Shown here piece after piece: positions 1 to 24,033 of a stretch of DNA of 24,033 nucleotides (within the stretch, counting starts at the first letter, position 1; each line of letters begins with the position of its first letter). The notes beneath the pieces are model-generated. The model saw only the letters and a program-made list of their open reading frames with translations, did no database searches and was not told where the DNA came from. The position numbers were made by a program, and so were the translations under genes. This stretch comes from Verrucomicrobia bacterium UBA3869 (GTDB lineage Bacteria; Verrucomicrobiota; Verrucomicrobiia; Opitutales; UBA9783), in contig DGGR01000017.1 in NCBI GenBank assembly GCA_002392285.1, forward strand, positions 1 through 24,033, in the 5' to 3' direction.

Positions 1-715
1 TTAAAAACTCCGGATGCGGGCGAACAACAACGCGATAATCCGTGCTTTTCAAAGTATCGATGAGAGAATCAATTCCCTGTTCCATTAAATTTCCCGGACC
101 CCAGGTCGGCGCGACCAACACGGTTGTTTGATCCGGGAATTTCGGGGTGTAATGCTGAAATTTTTGATACACAACATCGATACGCGGATAACCCACGGGT
201 AGCAATTGTTTTGCAGGTAAGGCATACACCTGTTCCCGCTTTTTTATTTCTTCGGTATGATGAGGGCCTACGCAAAAAATGGCATCATAAGCATCAAAAG
301 CAGTTTCGTTGTATTGCAAATGGGTACTGGAAAAAGCGTGAAATAGATAGAGGTAGGTTTTTACCTTCTTGGATTTTCGAAACGCACGCACCTGCGTACT
401 GTTTAAATCGGGTGCAGTCCAAACAAAACACCTTGCATCGATGCGATCCATAACCGATTTCAAACAAAGGTCAAAATAGAAGGGATGTAAGCGTTCGTGA
501 TGATGCGTTAAAATCGGATCCTTTGGGTCATTGGTAAGGTAACTGAACTGGATGGATGGATTTTTCAGCAATTCGATAATAAAGGGCTCAAACGTTTGAT
601 AATAGATAGCGCTTTCGGAAAAAAACACTAATTGGCGACAAGGCGCGAAGTCTTTGCTAAAAAAACGATTGTATGCCTTGAATTCCCCTAATAGACTTAG
701 GATGTGTTGGAACAT
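1..715 (-). CDS. CDP-glycerol glycerophosphotransferase (TagB/TagF, Glyphos_transf)-family phosphotransferase; N-terminal 238 aa only, 3' end runs off the window
   Basis: Not in the supplied ORF track because there is no stop in the window. My own minus-strand translation from the ATG (complement of 715-713) stays open to base 1: MFQHILSLLGEFKAYNRFFSKDFAPCRQLVFFSESAIYYQTFEPFIIELLKN...YLYLFHAFSSTHLQYNETAFDAYDAIFCVGPHHTEEIKKREQVYALPAKQLLPVGYPRIDVVYQKFQHYTPKFPDQTTVLVAPTWGPGNLMEQGIDSLIDTLKSTDYRVVVRPHPEFL. The motifs GYPRxD, xxAPTW and a later HP are those I associate with TagF-like enzymes. The track ORFs 69..275(-) and 124..453(+) are out-of-frame shadows of this gene. Confidence 0.6.
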   Translation of the reverse strand, partial: MFQHILSLLGEFKAYNRFFSKDFAPCRQLVFFSESAIYYQTFEPFIIELLKNPSIQFSYLTNDPKDPILTHHHERLHPFYFDLCLKSVMDRIDARCFVWTAPDLNSTQVRAFRKSKKVKTYLYLFHAFSSTHLQYNETAFDAYDAIFCVGPHHTEEIKKREQVYALPAKQLLPVGYPRIDVVYQKFQHYTPKFPDQTTVLVAPTWGPGNLMEQGIDSLIDTLKSTDYRVVVRPHPEFL

Positions 716-3691
716 AATTATCAATGTATTATCTTGGGGGCTGGGCGGTCAAAACAATTAACCCAAAATCCCGCGCTGGTTAATATTGATCAAGACCAAT
801 GCACTTTGGATTGGTTGCTTAAAACCGTAGGGGCTAATGCTTGCAGCAGTATTTTTGTTGGTGGATATACCTTTGATACGATTGCCCAAAAATATCCGCA
901 ATTGCGTTTTGTTTGCAATGCACAATGGGCGAAAACCGGCTGTGAAACCTCGTTGTACCTATCTCAATTCGACCCAAAACTCCCTGCATTTATATGCTAT
1001 GGGGATATCTTGGTGCGCTCTGCATTGGTTGAATTGGTTCTGAAAGTGGCCGAAGCTGATGATAGCGATGGGGTTATTACCTTGGATTCCCATACGCAGT
1101 TGTTGGATACCAAAGAAAACTATGAATGCTTCGAAGGAACGTTAAAGGGCCAATACGGAAATTACCCCTTCGTGGGATGTGTGTATTTAAAACCTAAGGC
1201 ATTGGGGCTCTTACACCAACAGCAGTGTTTTCGCAACAATGGGAAAAATTACCGCCTATCTGACTTGATACACCTCTGCCAGGATAAATTACGATTGACT
1301 TGCGTAGATGCGCATGGATTGTGGGCTGAAATCTTACGCCCCATTGATATTACCAAGTTTATCCTAACAACGAAATCCGAAACGCTCCAAACCTTGCAGC
1401 GTCATATTACCCAAGCACGGATGTTGGATCAGGTCCATTTTTCGGTTAAGGAGTGGCGTGAACAATCTTCTAGTTTGGTTTCGTGTATCCTGCAAACATT
1501 CCCACATCAACCATTGGTAGTGCGCAGTAGTTCACTGCAGGAAGATAACTTTACACAGGCCAATGCGGGTAAATTCGAAAGTATTTTAAACGTTCAGCCA
1601 GAAGCAACCGTTATTAAAGCAGCCGTTGATACCGTCATTCAATCCTATGGAACGCCGAAAGAAGCGGACCAGGTGTTGGTTCAACCCATGTTGCCGAATG
1701 TTAAATTGAGCGGAGTTGTTTTTACCCGTAGCCTGCAGCACAGTGCCCCTTACTATATTGTGAATTATGATGGGACGAGCACCGAATCCGTTACGAGTGG
1801 CCAAAGTACGCAGGATGTTACCTTTTATCATTGGAAACACGCCCCGATTCCGTCCCATGCACCTGATTTTTATCCACGCTTACAAGCAGCGATTCAAGAG
1901 ATTGAGCACCTAACCCAATGGGATGCGTTGGATATTGAGTTCGCGGTTACTCAGCAAAACGAACTGTATTTGTTCCAAGTACGACCTTTGGTCGCGCGTC
2001 ACTTGCAGGAAATTAGCGACGAACAGCTTCAGCAATGTTTGGATGAAGCCGCAGAGCGCTTCGATTCGCTACAAATCCCCCAGGAAGCAATTGCGGGGCA
2101 ACATACGATTTTCGGTGTTATGCCTGATTGGAACCCGGCTGAAATGATTGGAACGAAACCGAATGCGTTAGCGGCTTCCCTCTATCGTACGCTGATCACA
2201 GACTCCATTTGGGCACAACAAAGGGCGGAATTTGGTTATAAAGACGTACGGCCTTATCCCTTGATGGTGAGCTTTTCAGGTCACCCATATATCGATGTGC
2301 GTGCCAGTATCCATTCGTTTATCCCAAAGTCCGTTCCTACTGAAACAACCGGCAAGTTGGTTACATTTTTCGTTAACCGTTTAAAACAGCATCCTGAATG
2401 GCATGATAAGTTGGAGTTTAAGGTGATGCCGACGTGCGACACCTGCGATTTTGATGAACGTTGGCACGCGTTGTTAACCAAAGATGCAGGGTTATCGGTA
2501 ATGGAATATCAACAGTATCGCTCGGCTTTGCACGAAATAACCCACGCTGCTTTGATTCAATGCGAAGCCTACTACAAAGCTATTAAGGCGATCGAAGAGC
2601 GTTTTGCACGTATTAAAGCGTCTCAGCAAGCGGATAGCGATAAAATTTACACTTTGATTGAAACAGCCAAAATAGGTACGCTCAACTTTTCCCATTTGGC
2701 CCGATGCGGCTTTATTGCACGTTCCTTGCTGCAGGCTTATGAAGCACAGGGGATTATTACCAAGGAAGAAAGTCAGTCGCTTGTTGACGCTATTCAGACG
2801 ATTGCGGGACAATTTTTTAAGGATACTCAAGCTGCGATTGCGGGTAAAGGTTCTAAGCAAGCCTGTTTGGATATCTATGGGCATTTGCGTCCAGGAACCT
2901 ATGACATTACGTCGCCAACCTACCGTTCTGATCCTGAAAAATACTTGTTTGTAAAAAGCACAGTGGAATTGAGTCAGCGTTCCAAGGCAGCCTTTAGTTA
3001 TAACAAGCTAGAAGCCGCTTTACAAAAGGACTGGGGATTTTCACTTACGGCATTTCGCCAATTTTTACAATGCGCGATTGCTGGTCGAGAATATTCAAAA
3101 TTTATCTTTACGCGCTACATTTCTTTAATCCTGGATTTGATACAAGCAATTGGCGCTCGCTATGGATTTTCCCCACAAGAGCTGGAGCATGTACCCATTA
3201 CGGTTTTTCAGCAACTGCGCGGGGGTATTGATGCATCAAAAACCTTGAAAGCTTTGTTACAAACAACCATCGAACAAGGTGCGTTGGATTACTGTTTCGC
3301 TCAGGCTATAGAATTGCCGCCGCTGATTACCAACAAGAGCGATTTTTATGCCTTCTTTGTGCCTAAAACATTGCCGAATTTTATTGGAAATCAAAAGGCC
3401 GAAGCACCTTTGGTTTACCTCAAAAATTCTGATCAAATGGATGGTGCCGCTTTGCGCGATAAGATTGTTTTGATTGAAAAGGCAGATCCTGGGTTTGACT
3501 GGATTCTAAATTACGCTATTGCTGGGTTGATCACCGCTTATGGAGGCCCCAATTCCCATATGGCCATTCGTTCGGCCGAATGTCACTTGCCGGCAGCCAT
3601 TGGAATTGGAGAAGCGCTGTTTGACTCGCTCAAAACAGCTCAATTGGTTCACTTAGATTGCGCCAATCACACGTTAAAACGCATCCGATAA
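704..3691 (+). CDS. Three-module fusion of an N-terminal nucleotidyltransferase-like domain, a PPDK_N/PEP-synthase-type ATP-grasp domain, and a C-terminal PEP-utilizer phosphohistidine swivel domain; candidate Cj1418-like amide/small-molecule kinase (L-glutamine kinase type)
   Basis: 995-aa ORF with a GTG start at 704 (TTG 707 is an alternative; AGGA at 699-702). aa 8-220: IILGAGRSKQL...GGY...YGDIL, an NTase/GT-A-like domain. aa ~225-450: VVRSSSLQEDNFTQANAGKFESILNV...VLVQPMLPNVKLSGVVFTRS...LDIEFAV...LYLFQVRPL, classic PPDK_N ATP-grasp motifs. aa ~905-995: ITAYGGPNSHMAIRSAECHLPAAIGIG, a PEP-utilizer mobile-domain signature with the putative phospho-His at codon 3557-3559. The order ATP-grasp, central domain, C-terminal His domain is the architecture of rifampin phosphotransferase and Cj1418, not of bona fide PEP synthase. 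Confidence 0.85.
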   Translation: MLEHNYQCIILGAGRSKQLTQNPALVNIDQDQCTLDWLLKTVGANACSSIFVGGYTFDTIAQKYPQLRFVCNAQWAKTGCETSLYLSQFDPKLPAFICYGDILVRSALVELVLKVAEADDSDGVITLDSHTQLLDTKENYECFEGTLKGQYGNYPFVGCVYLKPKALGLLHQQQCFRNNGKNYRLSDLIHLCQDKLRLTCVDAHGLWAEILRPIDITKFILTTKSETLQTLQRHITQARMLDQVHFSVKEWREQSSSLVSCILQTFPHQPLVVRSSSLQEDNFTQANAGKFESILNVQPEATVIKAAVDTVIQSYGTPKEADQVLVQPMLPNVKLSGVVFTRSLQHSAPYYIVNYDGTSTESVTSGQSTQDVTFYHWKHAPIPSHAPDFYPRLQAAIQEIEHLTQWDALDIEFAVTQQNELYLFQVRPLVARHLQEISDEQLQQCLDEAAERFDSLQIPQEAIAGQHTIFGVMPDWNPAEMIGTKPNALAASLYRTLITDSIWAQQRAEFGYKDVRPYPLMVSFSGHPYIDVRASIHSFIPKSVPTETTGKLVTFFVNRLKQHPEWHDKLEFKVMPTCDTCDFDERWHALLTKDAGLSVMEYQQYRSALHEITHAALIQCEAYYKAIKAIEERFARIKASQQADSDKIYTLIETAKIGTLNFSHLARCGFIARSLLQAYEAQGIITKEESQSLVDAIQTIAGQFFKDTQAAIAGKGSKQACLDIYGHLRPGTYDITSPTYRSDPEKYLFVKSTVELSQRSKAAFSYNKLEAALQKDWGFSLTAFRQFLQCAIAGREYSKFIFTRYISLILDLIQAIGARYGFSPQELEHVPITVFQQLRGGIDASKTLKALLQTTIEQGALDYCFAQAIELPPLITNKSDFYAFFVPKTLPNFIGNQKAEAPLVYLKNSDQMDGAALRDKIVLIEKADPGFDWILNYAIAGLITAYGGPNSHMAIRSAECHLPAAIGIGEALFDSLKTAQLVHLDCANHTLKRIR

Positions 3692-3696
3692 CAACT

Positions 3697-4353
3697 ATGG
3701 ACCCAGCAACAAACCCATTGGAATCGCACAACCTTAAATGGCTAAAAATCGGGCTATCTCAGCGCACCATTCAGGCAGCGGAAGCCCAGGGGGTAGTTAG
3801 TCCATCCGATGAACTGCACGATGAATTGAGTCAGCAATGGACCACCTTATTAAACGCTCGCCATTTGTTGACCCTACCCATTCCCAACCTGGTTCCATTA
3901 CAACCGTGGCTATCGGCGGTGAATTTAGACGGAATTTTGTTGAGTGGAGGCAATGATCACGCTACCCGCAGTACCTGCGAAACCGCTTGTATCGAATACA
4001 GCATACAGCATCGCTTGCCCCTCATGGGCATTTGCCATGGGTTCCAATGCATCGCACGTTATTTCGGAGCAACCTTAATACCTATTCAAGGGCATGTTGG
4101 ATGTACGCATCCGGTTCAAATTCATGAAAATCCCTATATCCCAACAGGTACCCAAATCGTTAATTCCTTCCATACGCTAACGATAGCAACGCTTCCAGAT
4201 GGGTTTAAGCCACTCGCAACCGATTTGGAAGGCCATTTGGAGGCAATTTACCACGAAACGCTCCCGATAGTAGCTTTCATATGGCATCCGGAACGTCCTC
4301 CGTTCGATGCCAAGTGGAACGCATGGGCTTATTCTTTTTATGCAAAAAACTAA
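3697..4353 (+). CDS. Class-I glutamine amidotransferase-like hydrolase (peptidase C26 / gamma-glutamyl hydrolase type); candidate Cj1417-like gamma-glutamyl-CDP-amidate hydrolase
   Basis: The track ORF is 3658..4353. I prefer ATG 3697, which lies 5 nt after the upstream stop (product MDPATNPLESH...). Nucleophile elbow LMGICHGFQCIARYFG (Cys codon 4033-4035). C-terminal FIWHPE supplies the His/Glu pair (His 4285-4287, Glu 4291-4293). ILLSGGND precedes the elbow, as is typical of this fold. Confidence 0.8.
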   Translation: MDPATNPLESHNLKWLKIGLSQRTIQAAEAQGVVSPSDELHDELSQQWTTLLNARHLLTLPIPNLVPLQPWLSAVNLDGILLSGGNDHATRSTCETACIEYSIQHRLPLMGICHGFQCIARYFGATLIPIQGHVGCTHPVQIHENPYIPTGTQIVNSFHTLTIATLPDGFKPLATDLEGHLEAIYHETLPIVAFIWHPERPPFDAKWNAWAYSFYAKN

Positions 4354-5077
4354 GGTTTTTATTTTATGCGCCGGCGAAGGTAAACGCTTACGTCCGTATA
4401 CCGAGCATCAACCCAAATGCATGGTCCCTTACCAAGGGAAGCCGCTTGTAGCGTATCAATTGGATTTGTTCGCTCAACAGGGGCTTCGGGATATTGTTCT
4501 CATTGGTGGGTATTGCCATACGCTGTTGCCTAAACAAGCTACGGTGGTGGTTAATCCCGATTATGTTAAAACCAATATGGTCTATAGCCTGTTTTGCGCG
4601 CAGGAACAAATGGATGAAGCTTGCGATTGGCTCATTACCTATGGCGATATCATTTACCATGCGTCGGTATTGCAAGCGATGCTCAAAGCCAACGAATCCA
4701 TTGCGGTTGCAACCGATGTTGATTGGCAGTGTTATTGGAAACGGCGTATGGAAGATCCGTTGAAGGATGCGGAAACCTTTCGCTGGGATACACAAACCCA
4801 TCGCATTATTGAAATCGGCAAAAAACCGAAAACTTTGGCGGATATCCAAGGCCAGTACATTGGTTTTATTAAGGTAGCGGCTCAATATACCAAGGTTTTT
4901 AAGCAAGCCTATCGGCAGTTTTTAAACGTTCATCCAAGTCCAAAAACCGCTTATATGACAGATTTTTTGCAGTTTTTAATCGACCAAAAAATTCCGCTGT
5001 ATGGCGTACCCATTCACAATCATTGGGCTGAATTTGATACGGTTCAGGACCTATTGTTAACATTAGATTGGCTATAA
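4340..5077 (+). CDS. Nucleotidyltransferase (LicC/NTP_transf_3-like cytidylyltransferase type); candidate Cj1416-like CTP:phosphoglutamine cytidylyltransferase
   Basis: The track ORF is 4307..5077. I prefer ATG 4340 (MQKTKVFILCAGEGKRLRPYTEHQPKCMVPYQGKPL), which overlaps the upstream stop by 14 nt and suggests translational coupling. It has a canonical GxGxRLxPxTxxxPK signature, YGDII, and later KDAETF and GQYIGF motifs. Confidence 0.8.
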   Translation: MQKTKVFILCAGEGKRLRPYTEHQPKCMVPYQGKPLVAYQLDLFAQQGLRDIVLIGGYCHTLLPKQATVVVNPDYVKTNMVYSLFCAQEQMDEACDWLITYGDIIYHASVLQAMLKANESIAVATDVDWQCYWKRRMEDPLKDAETFRWDTQTHRIIEIGKKPKTLADIQGQYIGFIKVAAQYTKVFKQAYRQFLNVHPSPKTAYMTDFLQFLIDQKIPLYGVPIHNHWAEFDTVQDLLLTLDWL

Positions 5078-5132
5078 TCCACGTTTGATTCCTCGCTGTA
5101 ATTCCCTTATAATAAGCTTAATAGAGGCGTAC

Positions 5133-7208
5133 ATGAGGAATATGACTAAGAAAGCAACGACTGTCCATGCTAAAACAGCGAAAAAAACCTTAAAGCTGTC
5201 CGATAAAAAATCCTGCATCCGTAGTGCATCCACTAAACGGGTAAGAGCTGCCAAATTAACTCCTGTTATCGATTACCATGCAGCTTGGGAATTAGCCAAT
5301 CAGGCTGATTTGCTCGCCTTCCAACAAGGGCACTGCAATCGCATTTACAACGTACTTGGTTCTCATCCTGCAACTGAAGAAGAGAAATCGGGCTATCACT
5401 TTGCGGTATGGGCTCCGAATGCAAAATCTGTATCTGTGGTAGGGGATTTTAATCAATGGGATTCGAAGAAAAATCCTATGTACTTACACAATCTTTTTGG
5501 GGTATGGGAAGCATTTGTTCCTGGCGCTACAGTAGGACAAAAATACAAATATGCCGTTATCGGATGCAATCAACAATTGCAGTTGAAAGCTGATCCGTAC
5601 GGCAATTGGGGTGAACATACAGATTCGCACGCGTCCATCCTATGTCCTACCTTAAACCGATACGAGTGGAACGACAATACGTGGCTGCAAAAGCGCGCTA
5701 GACATAATTGCCAAGAACAGCCCTTGTCGATCTATGAGCTTCACATCGATTCTTGGCGTCACAATGCAAAAGACAATCCGCTCACTTACCGAGAATTAGC
5801 ACAGCAACTAGCGCAGTATTTAAAAGCTACAGATTTTACGCATGTTGAATTGATGCCGATTATGGAGCATCCCTTTACGGATTCCTGGGGCTATCAAATA
5901 ACTGGGTTTTATGCGCCCACCTCGCGTTATGGGACACCGGAAGACTTTCAGTATTTAATCGATACGCTGCATCAAGCTAATATTGGCGTCATTCTCGATT
6001 GGGTACCCGGTCACTTCCCAACCGACGATTTTGGTTTGGCGCGCTTTGATGGTACCGCTTTGTATGAACATGCCGATCCGCGCCAAGGTATCCATCCAGA
6101 TTGGGGAACCTATATCTTTAATTATGGACGCAACGAGGTCCGCAATTTCCTCATCAGCAACGCATTGTTTTGGATTGAGCAATTCCATATCGATGGTTTA
6201 CGTTTGGATGCAGTTGCTTCCATGCTTTATTTGGATTATTCTCGCAAACCTGATGCATGGATCCCCAACCAATACGGAGGTAAAGAGAATATAGATGCCA
6301 TTAATTTCTTGCGTGAACTCAATAACATCATCCATTCATCCTATCCTGGCGTTCTATCGATTGCTGAGGAATCAAGTTCCTTTGGTCGCGTTTCTCAACC
6401 AACTCAATCTTATGGATTGGGATTTGATTTTAAATGGAACATGGGTTGGATGCATGATGTATCCAATTACTGTAAATTGGATCCGATTTTCCGCAAATAT
6501 CATCACAACAAAATGACCTTTGCGATGCTTTATCAACGCTCAGAGCATTTCATCAATGTCTTTTCGCACGATGAAGTGGTTTACGGCAAAGGTTCGATGG
6601 TACAGAAAATGGGTTCGCCTTATTTAAGCGATAAACTGAGTACCTTGCGCGCCCTCTATACTTTTATGTGGGGATGGCCAGGCAAAAAAACACTCTTTAT
6701 GGGCAACGAATTCGCTCAGCTCGATGAATGGGATTTCCACAAGGCTTTGTCTTGGGAATTGTTGGAGAAACCAGAACATCAAGGGATGTTGCGCTTAATC
6801 TTTGATTTAAATCACCTCTACCGCACGCTGCGTTTTTGGCACGAAGGCGATATGTACGAAGGAAGTTTTTCTTGGATCAACCCAGAGGATTGCGATAACA
6901 GCGTATTCTCATTTATACGCAAAAGCGCTTCCTCAACCCATACGCTCTTGTTTATCTCGAACTTTACGCCAATTGAGCATTCAAATTACGAATGCGGCGT
7001 TCCTTTCGCCGGTACTTGGCATGAATTGCTTAACTCCGATAGTACATCCTATGGCGGACTTAATCGTGGGAATTTAGGCTCTGTAACTGCGATCAAGCAA
7101 GAACGCGACCTGCAACCCTGCACACTTAGCTTATACCTACCCCCGCTAAGTACGATTGTCTTAGAGTTTAAACGTACTCATATGAAGGCATGCGATAAAA
7201 GTGCTTAG
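5133..7208 (+). CDS. glgB: 1,4-alpha-glucan branching enzyme GlgB (GH13 with CBM48), carrying a Lys-rich N-terminal extension
   Basis: HFAVWAPNAKSVSVVGDFNQWD (CBM48). GH13 catalytic motifs are VILDWVPGHF, GLRLDAVASMLY, LSIAEESS and FSHDEV. The track ORF starts at 5085. ATG 5133 has GAGG upstream, and ATG 5142 is an alternative. Confidence 0.9.
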   Translation: MRNMTKKATTVHAKTAKKTLKLSDKKSCIRSASTKRVRAAKLTPVIDYHAAWELANQADLLAFQQGHCNRIYNVLGSHPATEEEKSGYHFAVWAPNAKSVSVVGDFNQWDSKKNPMYLHNLFGVWEAFVPGATVGQKYKYAVIGCNQQLQLKADPYGNWGEHTDSHASILCPTLNRYEWNDNTWLQKRARHNCQEQPLSIYELHIDSWRHNAKDNPLTYRELAQQLAQYLKATDFTHVELMPIMEHPFTDSWGYQITGFYAPTSRYGTPEDFQYLIDTLHQANIGVILDWVPGHFPTDDFGLARFDGTALYEHADPRQGIHPDWGTYIFNYGRNEVRNFLISNALFWIEQFHIDGLRLDAVASMLYLDYSRKPDAWIPNQYGGKENIDAINFLRELNNIIHSSYPGVLSIAEESSSFGRVSQPTQSYGLGFDFKWNMGWMHDVSNYCKLDPIFRKYHHNKMTFAMLYQRSEHFINVFSHDEVVYGKGSMVQKMGSPYLSDKLSTLRALYTFMWGWPGKKTLFMGNEFAQLDEWDFHKALSWELLEKPEHQGMLRLIFDLNHLYRTLRFWHEGDMYEGSFSWINPEDCDNSVFSFIRKSASSTHTLLFISNFTPIEHSNYECGVPFAGTWHELLNSDSTSYGGLNRGNLGSVTAIKQERDLQPCTLSLYLPPLSTIVLEFKRTHMKACDKSA

Positions 7209-8053
7209 AACCTTGTCCCTATACCAAAATAGACCTGGTCGGATTCCAAATCACCCAATTTGGGGATGCTATGGCCGTAGACTTTATTATCGAAAAGTTG
7301 GCTGAAGGCAATATGCCGATAGCCCCCTTCGATACGGCATCCAAATCCTTCGTAGCAAAGAAAAGCTGTAAGATTATATAACAGAGCTCCAGTATAAACA
7401 TACTTACGACGATAGCGAGATGAGCCTTCCCAAAACGGAATGCCTACAACGCCTGTAGTATCAACATTAAGTGCTTCCCATGTGGTAAATTTAGTAAAAA
7501 CGCAAGCGCCCCCCATTCCTCCGCCAATGCCTATTGACAGGGAATCCAAAAGATACTGCACCCAATACAGATTAACTTGACAGCCCATAATGCGTTGGTT
7601 TTTGAGGTACATTGCAGTAAACAAATTATTCCACCTACCACTGTAAAAACGGTAACGAGAGACTCGAAAATCAGGCTGTAATATCTGGAAATGGCCAACG
7701 GTTATCATCTTCCGGGATACGTCAAGATTCGCATAAGCTCCTAAGCATTCAAGTTCTAAGTTTAGAACACTGCTAGTAAAGATATCGAACTCCCCACCTA
7801 AAGCTACTGATAACGTACGATAGTTCTTATAGGGAAAGGATCCCTGAGTTCCCTTCCCGTCATCGGCTGGACGGGTGATATGGGTTCGTGTAACTCCAGC
7901 GTAGGGCTCGGATGTATCCTTAAGTCCAGTAATATCCCTTCCCCTAAGCTGTCCGAATCCGCTACGGAATATTAAATAGACCCCCTCACACGGTTGTGTA
8001 TTAAGACTTAAAATAAGCAAGCATATCCATAGGAATCGGTAACGAACATTCAT
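7205..8053 (-). CDS. Hypothetical outer-membrane beta-barrel protein (OMP_b-brl-like), no recognisable orthology
   Basis: The track ORF is 7205..8062. The fourth-codon ATG (8053) sits 8 nt downstream of AAGGA, so I prefer it. The N-terminus MNVRYRFLWICLLILSLNTQPCEG is signal-like. The protein has alternating hydrophobic/polar strands, a glycine-rich SIGIGGGMGG segment, and the C-terminal beta-signal ...QVYFGIGTRF ending in Phe. Confidence 0.55.
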   Translation of the reverse strand: MNVRYRFLWICLLILSLNTQPCEGVYLIFRSGFGQLRGRDITGLKDTSEPYAGVTRTHITRPADDGKGTQGSFPYKNYRTLSVALGGEFDIFTSSVLNLELECLGAYANLDVSRKMITVGHFQILQPDFRVSRYRFYSGRWNNLFTAMYLKNQRIMGCQVNLYWVQYLLDSLSIGIGGGMGGACVFTKFTTWEALNVDTTGVVGIPFWEGSSRYRRKYVYTGALLYNLTAFLCYEGFGCRIEGGYRHIAFSQLFDNKVYGHSIPKLGDLESDQVYFGIGTRF

Positions 8054-8171
8054 AGCGTACATCCTTGTAAATTTTAGTTTACCTATTTTTGGCTTGTGTG
8101 CTAGAACAATTTTAAAAAAATTATTCTTAATAGGGATAAAAACTGCTGCATCTCTATTTTTTAAGCAATTC

Positions 8172-13849: not shown

Positions 13850-14812
13850 ATGAAAATTCATCATTTATTAGCTATGCCTCTTACGCTCGCAACCAGCAGC
13901 GTATTTGCAGGTAATTATTGTGCGTGTTGTGAATCCGGCTGCAATTATCCCGATGCTTATCGTTTAGTGCAGCATTTAACCCAGAACGGTGGAGCTACCA
14001 TCCCCACTGCTTATGAAAAGATTGGTCGGGTTGATTTGCGGGATAACGCAGAAGATTCTTATCTTCATTTGTTTGTTCAAGAAACCTTTGGTGGTTTTGG
14101 ATTAAGCAACCGTTCACTGTCGTTAGAAGATAAGCGAGTAGCGCATTTTTCAGATATCGATAATATCCTCGCAAGCTATTTCGATCATTCTATGTCTGAA
14201 GCCAGAAAGAACCGCATCGCTTCTTTCTTCAAACATATTGCAACCGAAGAATTCATGCGTGAAATTTTGCTAGACGAGACCGTTGATGCTATTCGCGAAT
14301 ATACCGATCGTAATGACAACCGTGGTATTACTACCATTAACTTTACAACGGATAATCCCTACGCTTTGCATGAGATTTCCAACGATATCCAAATCCTTAA
14401 GGTTACGTTAACCTATGAGCAAAATGCTTATAAGACCCGTCGTTACCGTAACTTCTTGGCTTCATTCGAACTGACCTATGACATCATGGAAGACAAGATT
14501 GTAAACGTAAAGTTAATCGGTCCTATGCGGGTTAATTCGCAATTCGTCACGAATGAAGTGACTCAATTGTTCCCTTGCGAAGATCTGAATTGGAAAGTAG
14601 CTTCCATTTTTGATGATGAAGAGTATTTTGCCACATCTGAGAACGAGTGCTGCAAACAACAACCAAAGCCGATCGTTCACAAAGAAGAGGTCAATATTAC
14701 GATAAATCAGAATAACAACCCAGCTGTTGTACAACAAAGGGTTGCTCCAAAAAAAGCAACGAAGCGTCATCGCGGATTGTTTCAGGCTTTTCAGAACACA
14801 TTCGATAAATAA
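13850..14812 (+). CDS. Secreted hypothetical protein (320 aa), orphan
   Basis: Signal-peptide-like N-terminus MKIHHLLAMPLTLATSSVFA/GN, followed by the Cys cluster YCACCESGC. I recognise no family motif. Followed by a strong intrinsic terminator. Confidence 0.6.
   Translation: MKIHHLLAMPLTLATSSVFAGNYCACCESGCNYPDAYRLVQHLTQNGGATIPTAYEKIGRVDLRDNAEDSYLHLFVQETFGGFGLSNRSLSLEDKRVAHFSDIDNILASYFDHSMSEARKNRIASFFKHIATEEFMREILLDETVDAIREYTDRNDNRGITTINFTTDNPYALHEISNDIQILKVTLTYEQNAYKTRRYRNFLASFELTYDIMEDKIVNVKLIGPMRVNSQFVTNEVTQLFPCEDLNWKVASIFDDEEYFATSENECCKQQPKPIVHKEEVNITINQNNNPAVVQQRVAPKKATKRHRGLFQAFQNTFDK

Positions 14813-22986: not shown

Positions 22987-24033
<1,047 letters not shown>

Follow-up and report, generated by a model that had tools for sequence, protein, structure and literature searches.

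The window analysed here, i.e. the 24,033-nt stretch at positions 1-24,033 of contig DGGR01000017.1 from Verrucomicrobia bacterium UBA3869, a gut member of the Opitutales, carries at positions 1-5077 a TagF-like gene lying head-to-head with three tightly packed co-directional genes, as determined from an open reading frame (ORF) map and six-frame translation; the three encode a kinase with a fused N-terminal domain, a C26-type hydrolase and a stand-alone nucleotidyltransferase. On balance we favour the reading that this module makes cytidine diphosphoramidate (CDP-amidate) from glutamine, adenosine triphosphate (ATP) and cytidine triphosphate (CTP), and that the TagF-like enzyme transfers the phosphoramidate to a glycan with release of cytidine monophosphate (CMP). 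As the characterised Campylobacter jejuni enzymes suggest, the kinase would turn glutamine into N-phospho-glutamine via phospho-His952; by homology with the same organism, the stand-alone cytidylyltransferase would join N-phospho-glutamine with CMP from CTP, yielding CDP-L-glutamine, and the C26 hydrolase would take glutamate off the latter to give CDP-amidate. A hydroxyl of a surface glycan, possibly lipopolysaccharide (LPS), would then attack the terminal phosphorus in the TagF-like enzyme, with CMP leaving and an O-phosphoramidate placed on the sugar; this transfer step is proposed on the basis of the fold, the conserved synteny and the chemical parallel with CDP-glycerol. As a plain CDP-linked donor would serve in TagF chemistry, a 3'-phosphorylation step of the Cj1415 type would not be needed, and the TagF-like enzyme seems here to replace the extra kinase and transferase of Campylobacter-type loci. 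The initial annotation had likewise taken the locus for one that makes a CDP-activated phosphoramidate or related donor for the TagF-like enzyme, an interpretation supported by sequence comparison and structural models.

Gene layout and enzymes of the cassette

The four genes were recovered by ORF map and Pfam at the places, and with the types and orientations, that the initial annotation had given them. The TagF-like gene (715..1, minus strand; Glyphos_transf, GT-B fold), encoding a putative phosphoramidate transferase, is represented by the N-terminal 238 of 382 aa, its left end lying outside the window. The 995-aa kinase is encoded by the plus-strand ORF 704-3691, of which 704..1345 specifies an apparently degenerate Cj1416/LicC-like nucleotidyltransferase-fold domain (aa 1-214) and 1346..3691 the glutamine-kinase-like part (aa 215-995); within the latter, Pfam placed the PPDK_N ATP-grasp domain at nt 1376-1657 (residues 225-318) and the PEP-utilizers phospho-His swivel domain at nt 3458-3667 (residues 919-988, with His952 at nt 3557-3559), and a central helical region lies between the two. 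On the same strand follow the gene of the Cj1417-like class-I glutamine amidotransferase/peptidase C26 (3697..4353, 218 aa) and that of the canonical LicC-like, Cj1416-like cytidylyltransferase (4340..5077, 245 aa); the starts 3697 and 4340 are those of the gene caller, and the longest ORFs begin at TTG 3658 and ATG 4307, respectively. Five nucleotides separate the kinase stop from the C26 start, the C26 gene shares 14 nt with the nucleotidyltransferase gene, and the divergent genes for the TagF-like protein and the kinase share 12 nt at their 5' ends (704-715), so that the promoter of each must lie inside the opposite gene. The same head-to-head overlap was present in the related Opitutales loci L006 and L008, and N-terminal conservation with a Pseudomonas orthologue favours the long start of the TagF-like gene.

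Residues 215-993 of the 995-aa protein matched the NCBIfam model NF004508 with 848 bits against a cut-off of 501, compared with at most 63 bits for phosphoenolpyruvate (PEP) synthase models and 18 bits for rifamycin phosphotransferase, bearing out the earlier proposal that the kinase stands closer to the Cj1418 type than to PEP synthases or rifampin phosphotransferases. The proposed ATP-grasp plus phospho-His architecture was recovered as well (PPDK_N 48.4 bits, PEP-utilizers 46.8 bits), and His952 lies in GGPNSHMAIR, the motif GGxNSHMAIR being invariant across 14 diverse homologues; in a sequence search of solved structures, the swivel domain of PEP synthase was the sole match. We infer that the model NF004508/PRK05849 stands for the Cj1418-type L-glutamine kinase, since a Campylobacterota member, the unfused kinase of the Arcobacteraceae cluster L085, scores 998 bits to it, and since IMG labels some fused and some unfused members 'glutamine kinase'. 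This cluster, from a metagenome-assembled genome (MAG), served as stand-in for the C. jejuni proteins, comparisons being made with it and not with the C. jejuni sequences themselves, and its kinase is 38% identical to that of the window (E 2e-170). Cj1415-Cj1422 of C. jejuni were absent from the 120 best matches listed in either kinase search, and a literature search on the model name PRK05849 returned no match.

The C26 protein scored 75.6 bits to GATase and 54.2 bits to Peptidase_C26 in Pfam, and its best NCBIfam family was NF045546, gamma-glutamyl-CDP-amidate hydrolase, at 91.7 bits, i.e. below the equivalog cut-off of 250, with the next-best family, GMP synthase subunit A (52.7 bits), 39 bits lower; the protein was accordingly not placed with PuuD or folate hydrolases. 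The Arcobacteraceae homologue, 32% identical to it (E 1e-32), likewise falls under the same cut-off (189.8 bits). Its Cys/His/Glu triad, described as intact from the start, was located at C126/H210/E212 and found invariant in 79 hydrolase homologues. The stand-alone nucleotidyltransferase (Pfam NTP_transf_3, 60.2 bits; NTP_transferase, 34.8 bits) carries the ILCAGEGKRLRP...PKCM signature, and the G, R and PK residues of GxGxR...PK were 100% conserved in 74 stand-alone orthologues, in agreement with its description as a canonical enzyme. Its best sequence match in the PDB was LicC 1jyk (E 1e-14), it is 39% identical to the Arcobacteraceae homologue (E 2e-59), and a Cj1416-specific curated model was not among the NCBIfam matches listed.

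Two conserved peptide motifs, searched across 185,579 species genomes, returned at least 584 relatives from many phyla, and an exhaustive search gave 1,531 protein clusters at 50% identity (E <= 1e-30); ORFs were called in the 80 best loci and in those obtained earlier, and were searched with hidden Markov models (HMMs) built from the window proteins. The kinase, C26 and nucleotidyltransferase genes were contiguous in 58 of the 71 species loci with sufficient downstream sequence, stood in another arrangement in 11 and lacked one member in two; with all three present in syntenic position in 69 of 71, the conserved co-occurrence of the C26 gene with the other two was established. Enzyme types, order and catalytic residues were also conserved between the fused and unfused cassette styles described below, with the nucleotidyltransferase and the hydrolase forming one orthologous series each across both (HMM scores 245-338 and 166-301, respectively). 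This conservation argues against a different CDP-linked product, for which the kinase would act on another amide or amine, or CDP-glutamine itself would be the donor with the C26 enzyme working after transfer, so that phospho-glutamine or another phospho-head group would be installed. Such a product, which we consider unlikely, would suit the distance of the C26 protein from its equivalog cut-off, the mere 38% identity of the kinase to unfused-type enzymes, and the fused degenerate domain with its hint of altered substrate handling.

The fused N-terminal domain and two cassette styles

The extra domain fused to the kinase, which the initial annotation had noted without a family, is present, and it turned out to be itself of the nucleotidyltransferase fold, i.e. 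a Cj1416-like paralogue. NTP_transf_3 reached 26.4 bits on residues 8-126, just below its cut-off of 27; the domain is 24% identical to the stand-alone nucleotidyltransferase of the window (E 5e-6); and the best PDB matches of its AlphaFold2 (AF2) model, with a mean predicted local distance difference test score (pLDDT) of 86, were IPCT 4jd0 (a CTP:inositol-1-phosphate cytidylyltransferase), PntC 6pd2 and LicC 1jyk. When 53 fused N-terminal domains were aligned with 74 stand-alone orthologues, a 5-residue stretch with the second Gly and the Arg of GxGxRL was found deleted in ~89% of the fused domains, and the PK lysine replaced in them as well, while the Arg loop and PK were invariant in the stand-alone enzymes; the AF2 model is disordered exactly at residues 16-19, the site of the missing Arg loop. 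In GlmU/RmlA-type enzymes, the Arg-loop and PK residues are needed for binding the nucleotide triphosphate. The fused domains keep invariant residues of their own (D36, W37, W75, D101, D128, D202, G205, W207 and E209), and PKC persists as an intermediate form in a few lineages (L070, L083). From the alignment and the model, we read the domain as a probably constrained yet catalytically degenerate duplicate of the Cj1416-like enzyme.

In the proposed scheme the domain might dock the real cytidylyltransferase for hand-over of the labile phospho-glutamine, or might sense a cytidine nucleotide, which is the least secure of the steps suggested here. As an analogy only, GMPPA is a catalytically inactive, product-binding protein that regulates the GDP-mannose pyrophosphorylase GMPPB; it is likewise a nucleotidyltransferase-fold paralogue, and the structural matches to the domain model included GMPPA/GMPPB complexes, with the difference that the window paralogue is fused to the upstream kinase and not to the transferase. 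That the domain is instead an active enzyme, performing a second nucleotidyl transfer or a hydrolysis which substitutes for Cj1415, we hold to be quite improbable: its own invariant residues, the PKC motif kept in a few members and its negative correlation with the APS-kinase gene (see below) would agree with activity, but the Arg loop and PK lysine are deleted or replaced in most fused domains, the model is disordered where the loop should be, and three fused loci still have an APS-kinase gene.

Two cassette styles were distinguished, namely one with an unfused kinase of ~775 aa, found in Firmicutes, Arcobacteraceae, Rhodospirillaceae, Bdellovibrio-like and other groups, and one with a fused kinase of ~1,000 aa, found in Opitutales, Puniceicoccales, Pseudomonas, Marinobacter, Legionella, SAR86, Flavobacteriales, Cyanobacteria, Anaerolineales, Bosea, Helicobacteraceae and further groups. 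The fused form is widespread across phyla and was the commoner one in the sample, so the idea of a variant peculiar to a different lineage did not hold. Co-occurrence was counted in the 53 loci whose flanks reached 4 kb or more, including 33 fused and 14 unfused ones. An adenosine phosphosulfate (APS)-kinase-like gene was present in 12 of 14 unfused versus 3 of 33 fused loci (Fisher p = 7e-7, uncorrected for phylogeny), nearly always at a distance of no more than a few kb from the cassette; the unfused loci with APS-kinase usually had a methyltransferase gene and often one for a sulfotransferase-like protein. A TagF orthologue or canonical Glyphos_transf gene lay beside the cassette in 17 of 33 fused loci and in 18 of all 53, with APS-kinase in 20 and both together in none. 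A strict mutual exclusivity of TagF and APS-kinase was nonetheless rejected, as it fails for distant Glyphos_transf relatives in L035, L048, L057 and L080. Among these, L057 (8826-14900, a Lysobacterales MAG) holds in an apparent single operon the genes for Glyphos_transf, a kinase with truncated N-terminal domain, C26, nucleotidyltransferase and an APS-kinase-like protein; Xanthomonas, with a phosphoramide on its LPS core, is a member of the same order.

The proteins of 550-670 aa encoded beside APS-kinase in Firmicutes-type loci (L068 6988-8730, L073 6711-8723, L076 6877-8742 and others) belong to no Pfam family. Their profile matched solved sulfotransferases (TPST1, E 3.6e-7; CurM sulfotransferase, E 1.7e-6) and gave no match to the TagF-like family, and an iterated HMM found the family in 14 loci, 13 of them with APS-kinase and the 14th ending 584 nt after the kinase ORF. 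CDP-phosphoramidate 3'-phosphate is the product of Cj1415-Cj1418 (PMC11800397), and in our own reading its 3'-phosphate may recall that of 3'-phosphoadenosine 5'-phosphosulfate (PAPS). A sulfotransferase-like transferase would fit a PAPS-like donor of this kind, as would the sulfotransferase-like partner of APS-kinase in the unfused style, and a TagF-like transferase would fit unphosphorylated CDP-amidate; the 550-670-aa proteins are candidates for phosphoramidate transferases of PAPS logic.

The TagF-like protein as candidate transferase

The divergent gene had been assigned to the TagF family, and this was verified at the levels of motif, Pfam and fold. PF04464 Glyphos_transf (cut-off 22.1) gave 23.1 bits for the fragment and 38.8 bits for the full 382 aa, which were read from a 99%-identical contig. 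The AF2 model (pLDDT 93) of P0121, a full-length protein 100% identical over the part in the window, had as best PDB fold matches by Foldseek TagF 3l7k (E 7e-13, template modelling score 0.63), an Actinobacillus capsule multienzyme and TarL, phosphotransferases that were solved with CDP-glycerol, CMP or CDP-ribitol bound. Identity to the solved TagF-fold enzymes is only 13-14%, and neither the protein nor its profile matched solved TagF at the sequence level, the link being Pfam and fold comparison. The protein carries the motifs GYPR.D (GYPRID in the window), APTW, RPHP and TD.SG, and His126 and His234 (the latter in RPHP) were invariant in an alignment of 29 homologues and may be the counterparts of the catalytic His444/His584 of TagF. 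IMG names several homologues (P0140-P0142, P0148, P0162) 'YidC/Oxa1 family membrane protein insertase', probably a mis-annotation at odds with the Pfam domain and the predicted fold.

With TagF, TarL and the capsule polymerases, the window protein shares the GT-B-like TagF fold, an above-threshold PF04464 match and common motifs, and it would use the same chemistry, in which the beta-phosphorus of a CDP-linked donor is attacked and CMP departs. It differs in being a short, single-domain protein of 382 aa and in having genes for phosphoramidate or phosphonate donors, not CDP-glycerol genes, as partners, features from which it is probably a single-transfer decorating enzyme and not a polymerase. 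In a reciprocal test, one relative (36% identical) was found directly after a fused cassette with a methyltransferase, and two others (44% and 36% identical) lie within PEP-mutase/2-aminoethylphosphonate (AEP) clusters (L087 2391-8164 and L089 1218-8167), where a PEP mutase-nucleotidyltransferase fusion is encoded together with phosphonopyruvate decarboxylase, an aminotransferase of AEP type and PntC-like transferases. The TagF-like clade thus accompanies small cytidylyl-activated phosphorus donors, a company which a decorating transferase fits better than a teichoic-acid polymerase and which suggests that one clade serves both phosphonate and phosphoramidate decoration. Sulfatase-family genes also occur in these phosphonate clusters.

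The proposed link of the TagF-like gene with the cassette was corroborated by an orthologue conserved beside it across phyla, i.e. in Opitutales, Puniceicoccales, Pseudomonas, SAR86, Flavobacteriales, Cyanobacteria, Bosea and others; the Pseudomonas orthologue, directly after the nucleotidyltransferase gene, is 32% identical over all 382 aa, and the neighbour in Helicobacteraceae is a Glyphos_transf of 187 bits. These data bear on the possibility that the cassette makes CDP-amidate next to an ordinary CDP-glycerol or CDP-ribitol phosphotransferase, with the true transferase, and perhaps a Cj1415-like kinase, encoded elsewhere. NCBI indeed annotates the family simply as CDP-glycerol glycerophosphotransferase, and 13 of the 33 fused loci are without a TagF orthologue within 10 kb. 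However, the ~380-aa orthologue stays beside the cassette from Opitutales to Pseudomonas, whether divergent or co-directional, no gene of CDP-glycerol synthesis is adjacent, and as APS-kinase nearly always lies within a few kb of a cassette, its absence at 30 of 33 fused loci is unlikely to reflect scattering alone; we therefore give a bystander role of the TagF-like gene little credence.

In Pseudomonas sp. YeP6b (L003 1-15631), the cassette and its TagF-like gene lie inside an ABC-transporter O-antigen-type cluster that also encodes Wzm, a Wzt bearing the Wzt_C domain and a methyltransferase of 799 aa, with a Sulfatase-family gene immediately upstream; that the phosphoramidate is there a chain-end cap read by Wzt is speculative. 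That the module is unrelated to glycans and makes a soluble phosphoramidate or nucleotide natural product would accord with the housekeeping flanks of the window (glgB, bioBDA, lpxI, leuS) and their lack of glycosyltransferases, but the same module lies elsewhere within O-antigen- or capsule-type clusters (Wzm/Wzt, glycosyltransferases, sugar-nucleotide enzymes) and the nearest solved TagF-fold enzymes act on cell-envelope polymers, making such a product highly improbable. In two Opitutales/Verrucomicrobia MAGs (L012 9187-12365 and L013 9276-12678), the TagF-like and kinase genes are split into several ORFs, and L012 is also without the C26 gene, which could be pseudogenisation or assembly error.

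Several points weigh against synthesis of CDP-amidate and its transfer by the TagF-like enzyme. The homology rests on NF004508, NF045546 and the Arcobacteraceae stand-in and not on the C. jejuni proteins, and the score of the C26 enzyme against its cut-off means that its substrate could differ. No polysaccharide genes surround the module in the window, we know of no phosphoramidate reported from Verrucomicrobia, and a Cj1415-like kinase or a methyltransferase could be encoded elsewhere in the genome. In a rough neighbour-joining tree the unfused, APS-kinase-bearing loci formed one fairly coherent clade, so the association counts are not independent events. Four loci combine APS-kinase with a distant Glyphos_transf relative (L057, 58 bits; L080, 39 bits; L035, a sub-threshold 18.5 bits; L048, resting on our own TagF HMM at ~85 bits), so that TagF-like enzymes are not intrinsically incompatible with a 3'-phospho donor. 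Furthermore, a recognised TagF orthologue and APS-kinase are both missing from 13 of the 33 fused loci, the fused loci of Marinobacter have a Sulfotransfer_3-like neighbour and no APS-kinase within 10 kb, and the members in phosphonate clusters show that the TagF-like family does not fix the donor. The Marinobacter neighbour is exemplified by L019 14504-15430 (minus strand; Sulfotransfer_3-like, 39 bits) and recurs in L015, L018 and L020, standing off the simple two-style picture; it and its Natronospira counterpart had been considered as TagF-like and were rejected, the Marinobacter member (L019) being sulfotransferase-like and the Natronospira member having no Pfam match.

More tentatively, we propose that the P-N decoration of surface glycans is no peculiarity of Campylobacter and is encoded in hundreds of species, with two interchangeable deliveries, i.e. 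a Cj1415 kinase with a sulfotransferase-like enzyme or a TagF-like enzyme acting on CDP-amidate, that the TagF-like clade may comprise the first identified transferases of phosphoramidate and phosphonate head groups, and that the fused pseudo-cytidylyltransferase may be a new scaffold or sensor. If true, the carriers would span many phyla, including Pseudomonas, Legionella, Marinobacter, SAR86 and gut Verrucomicrobia, with the window exemplifying the TagF-like delivery.

Flanking genes and known systems

To the right of the nucleotidyltransferase gene follows glgB (5085/5133-7208, ATG at 5133), and the remaining genes of the window are housekeeping ones (bioB, bioD, bioA, a xerC/D-type recombinase, der, gatCAB, pheT and dnaK). 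The best promoter-like site of the region (5085-5113, TTGATT-17-TATAAT, 10/12) sits between the nucleotidyltransferase stop (5077) and the glgB ATG, so glgB may be transcribed independently; promoter and terminator scans as a whole returned fewer sites than in shuffled sequence and carry no evidential weight. The missing left flank was taken from the metagenome contig L001, 99% identical to the window, where an outer-membrane-like gene, lpxI, a DUF5131 gene, leuS and plsY lie left of the 382-aa TagF-like gene; neighbouring lpxI and kdsA are no more than a hint of LPS as the acceptor. Neither the scanned window ORFs nor the 10 kb to the left contained an APS-kinase domain (Pfam and a custom APS-kinase HMM) or a methyltransferase domain, extending to the left flank the earlier remark that the window has no Cj1415-like kinase or methyltransferase; the product may therefore stay unmethylated. 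In related Opitutales and Puniceicoccales a methyltransferase gene adjoins the TagF-like gene. The closest named genome among the matches listed was an Opitutales MAG from horse faeces, whose kinase is 93% identical.

Two paralogous 285-aa proteins, 45% identical and encoded at window 7205-8062 (minus strand) and L001 7993-8853 (plus strand), bracket the TagF-cassette-glgB block, inverted relative to each other; they belong to no Pfam family and, with an N-terminus resembling a signal peptide and a C-terminal half rich in Gly, may be outer-membrane proteins. A mobile insertion marked by DNA inverted repeats at these paralogues was considered and rejected, a single weak 44-nt match being all that was found. 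The ORFs 13850-14812 (plus strand, 320 aa) and 23276-23845 (minus strand, 189 aa) had no Pfam match at E <= 0.001.

The glutamine kinase has been called 'C. jejuni-specific' (PMC9561416), and sugars with O-methyl phosphoramidate (MeOPN) have been described as known from Campylobacter alone (PMC6429109), while MeOPN genes have been predicted in Borg elements (preprint). In the glutamine-kinase literature, part of it represented by titles and abstracts, we found no description of the fused kinase, the TagF-like partner or the two neighbourhood styles, and no literature linking MeOPN with a sulfotransferase was found. The fused variant without the additional kinase is apparently undescribed so far, the primary C. 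jejuni enzyme papers lying outside this comparison; the homology itself is not new, as database pipelines already label some of the proteins 'glutamine kinase'. How MeOPN reaches the sugar has yet to be settled even in C. jejuni (PMC12409886), and a variant without the additional kinase and with a soluble-looking TagF-type transferase would offer a direct experimental handle on this step. P-N-modified LPS or polysaccharides are predicted in culturable Pseudomonas, Marinobacter and Legionella, and in gut Verrucomicrobia. In Campylobacter, several phages use MeOPN as a recognition site (PMC9561416), and the variant could therefore influence phage-host and host-microbe relations elsewhere.

Among known systems, the C. 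jejuni MeOPN genes (Cj1415-Cj1422) resemble the module most directly in having a kinase, a C26 hydrolase and a LicC-like cytidylyltransferase transcribed in the same order; the window retains intact catalytic residues, and its best curated families are those of MeOPN. The Arcobacteraceae locus L085 has genes for APS_kinase (138 bits), methyltransferase, kinase, C26 and nucleotidyltransferase in a row, which corresponds to the Cj1415-Cj1420 gene set of NCTC 11168. The window differs from C. jejuni in having neither a Cj1415-like APS-kinase nor a methyltransferase, also when the 10 kb to the left are included, in the degenerate nucleotidyltransferase domain fused to its kinase, and in the position of the module outside a capsule locus; from the unfused (type-A) loci it differs in its candidate transferase, TagF-like in the window and sulfotransferase-like there. 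CDP-amidate, the intermediate expected here, has been described for the MeOPN pathway (PMC11800397, PMC6429109). The possible product of the window would be unmethylated, like the phosphoramide on the LPS core of Xanthomonas campestris, which is unexplained (PMC8042644) and for which the module points to candidate genes. In the Pnt pathway, CMP-AEP is the activated donor, and LicD-like transferases have been proposed with no mention of TagF-like ones (Rice et al. 2019, PMC6697681). The window module is like it in that a small phosphorus head group would be put on CMP by a LicC-like enzyme and then on a surface glycan, in the 36-44% identical TagF-like relatives within PEP-mutase/AEP clusters, and in the resemblance of the N-terminal domain model to PntC; it differs in that its bond would be P-N where that of Pnt is P-C, and its precursor would come from glutamine via a kinase and a hydrolase, whereas that of Pnt comes from PEP mutase.

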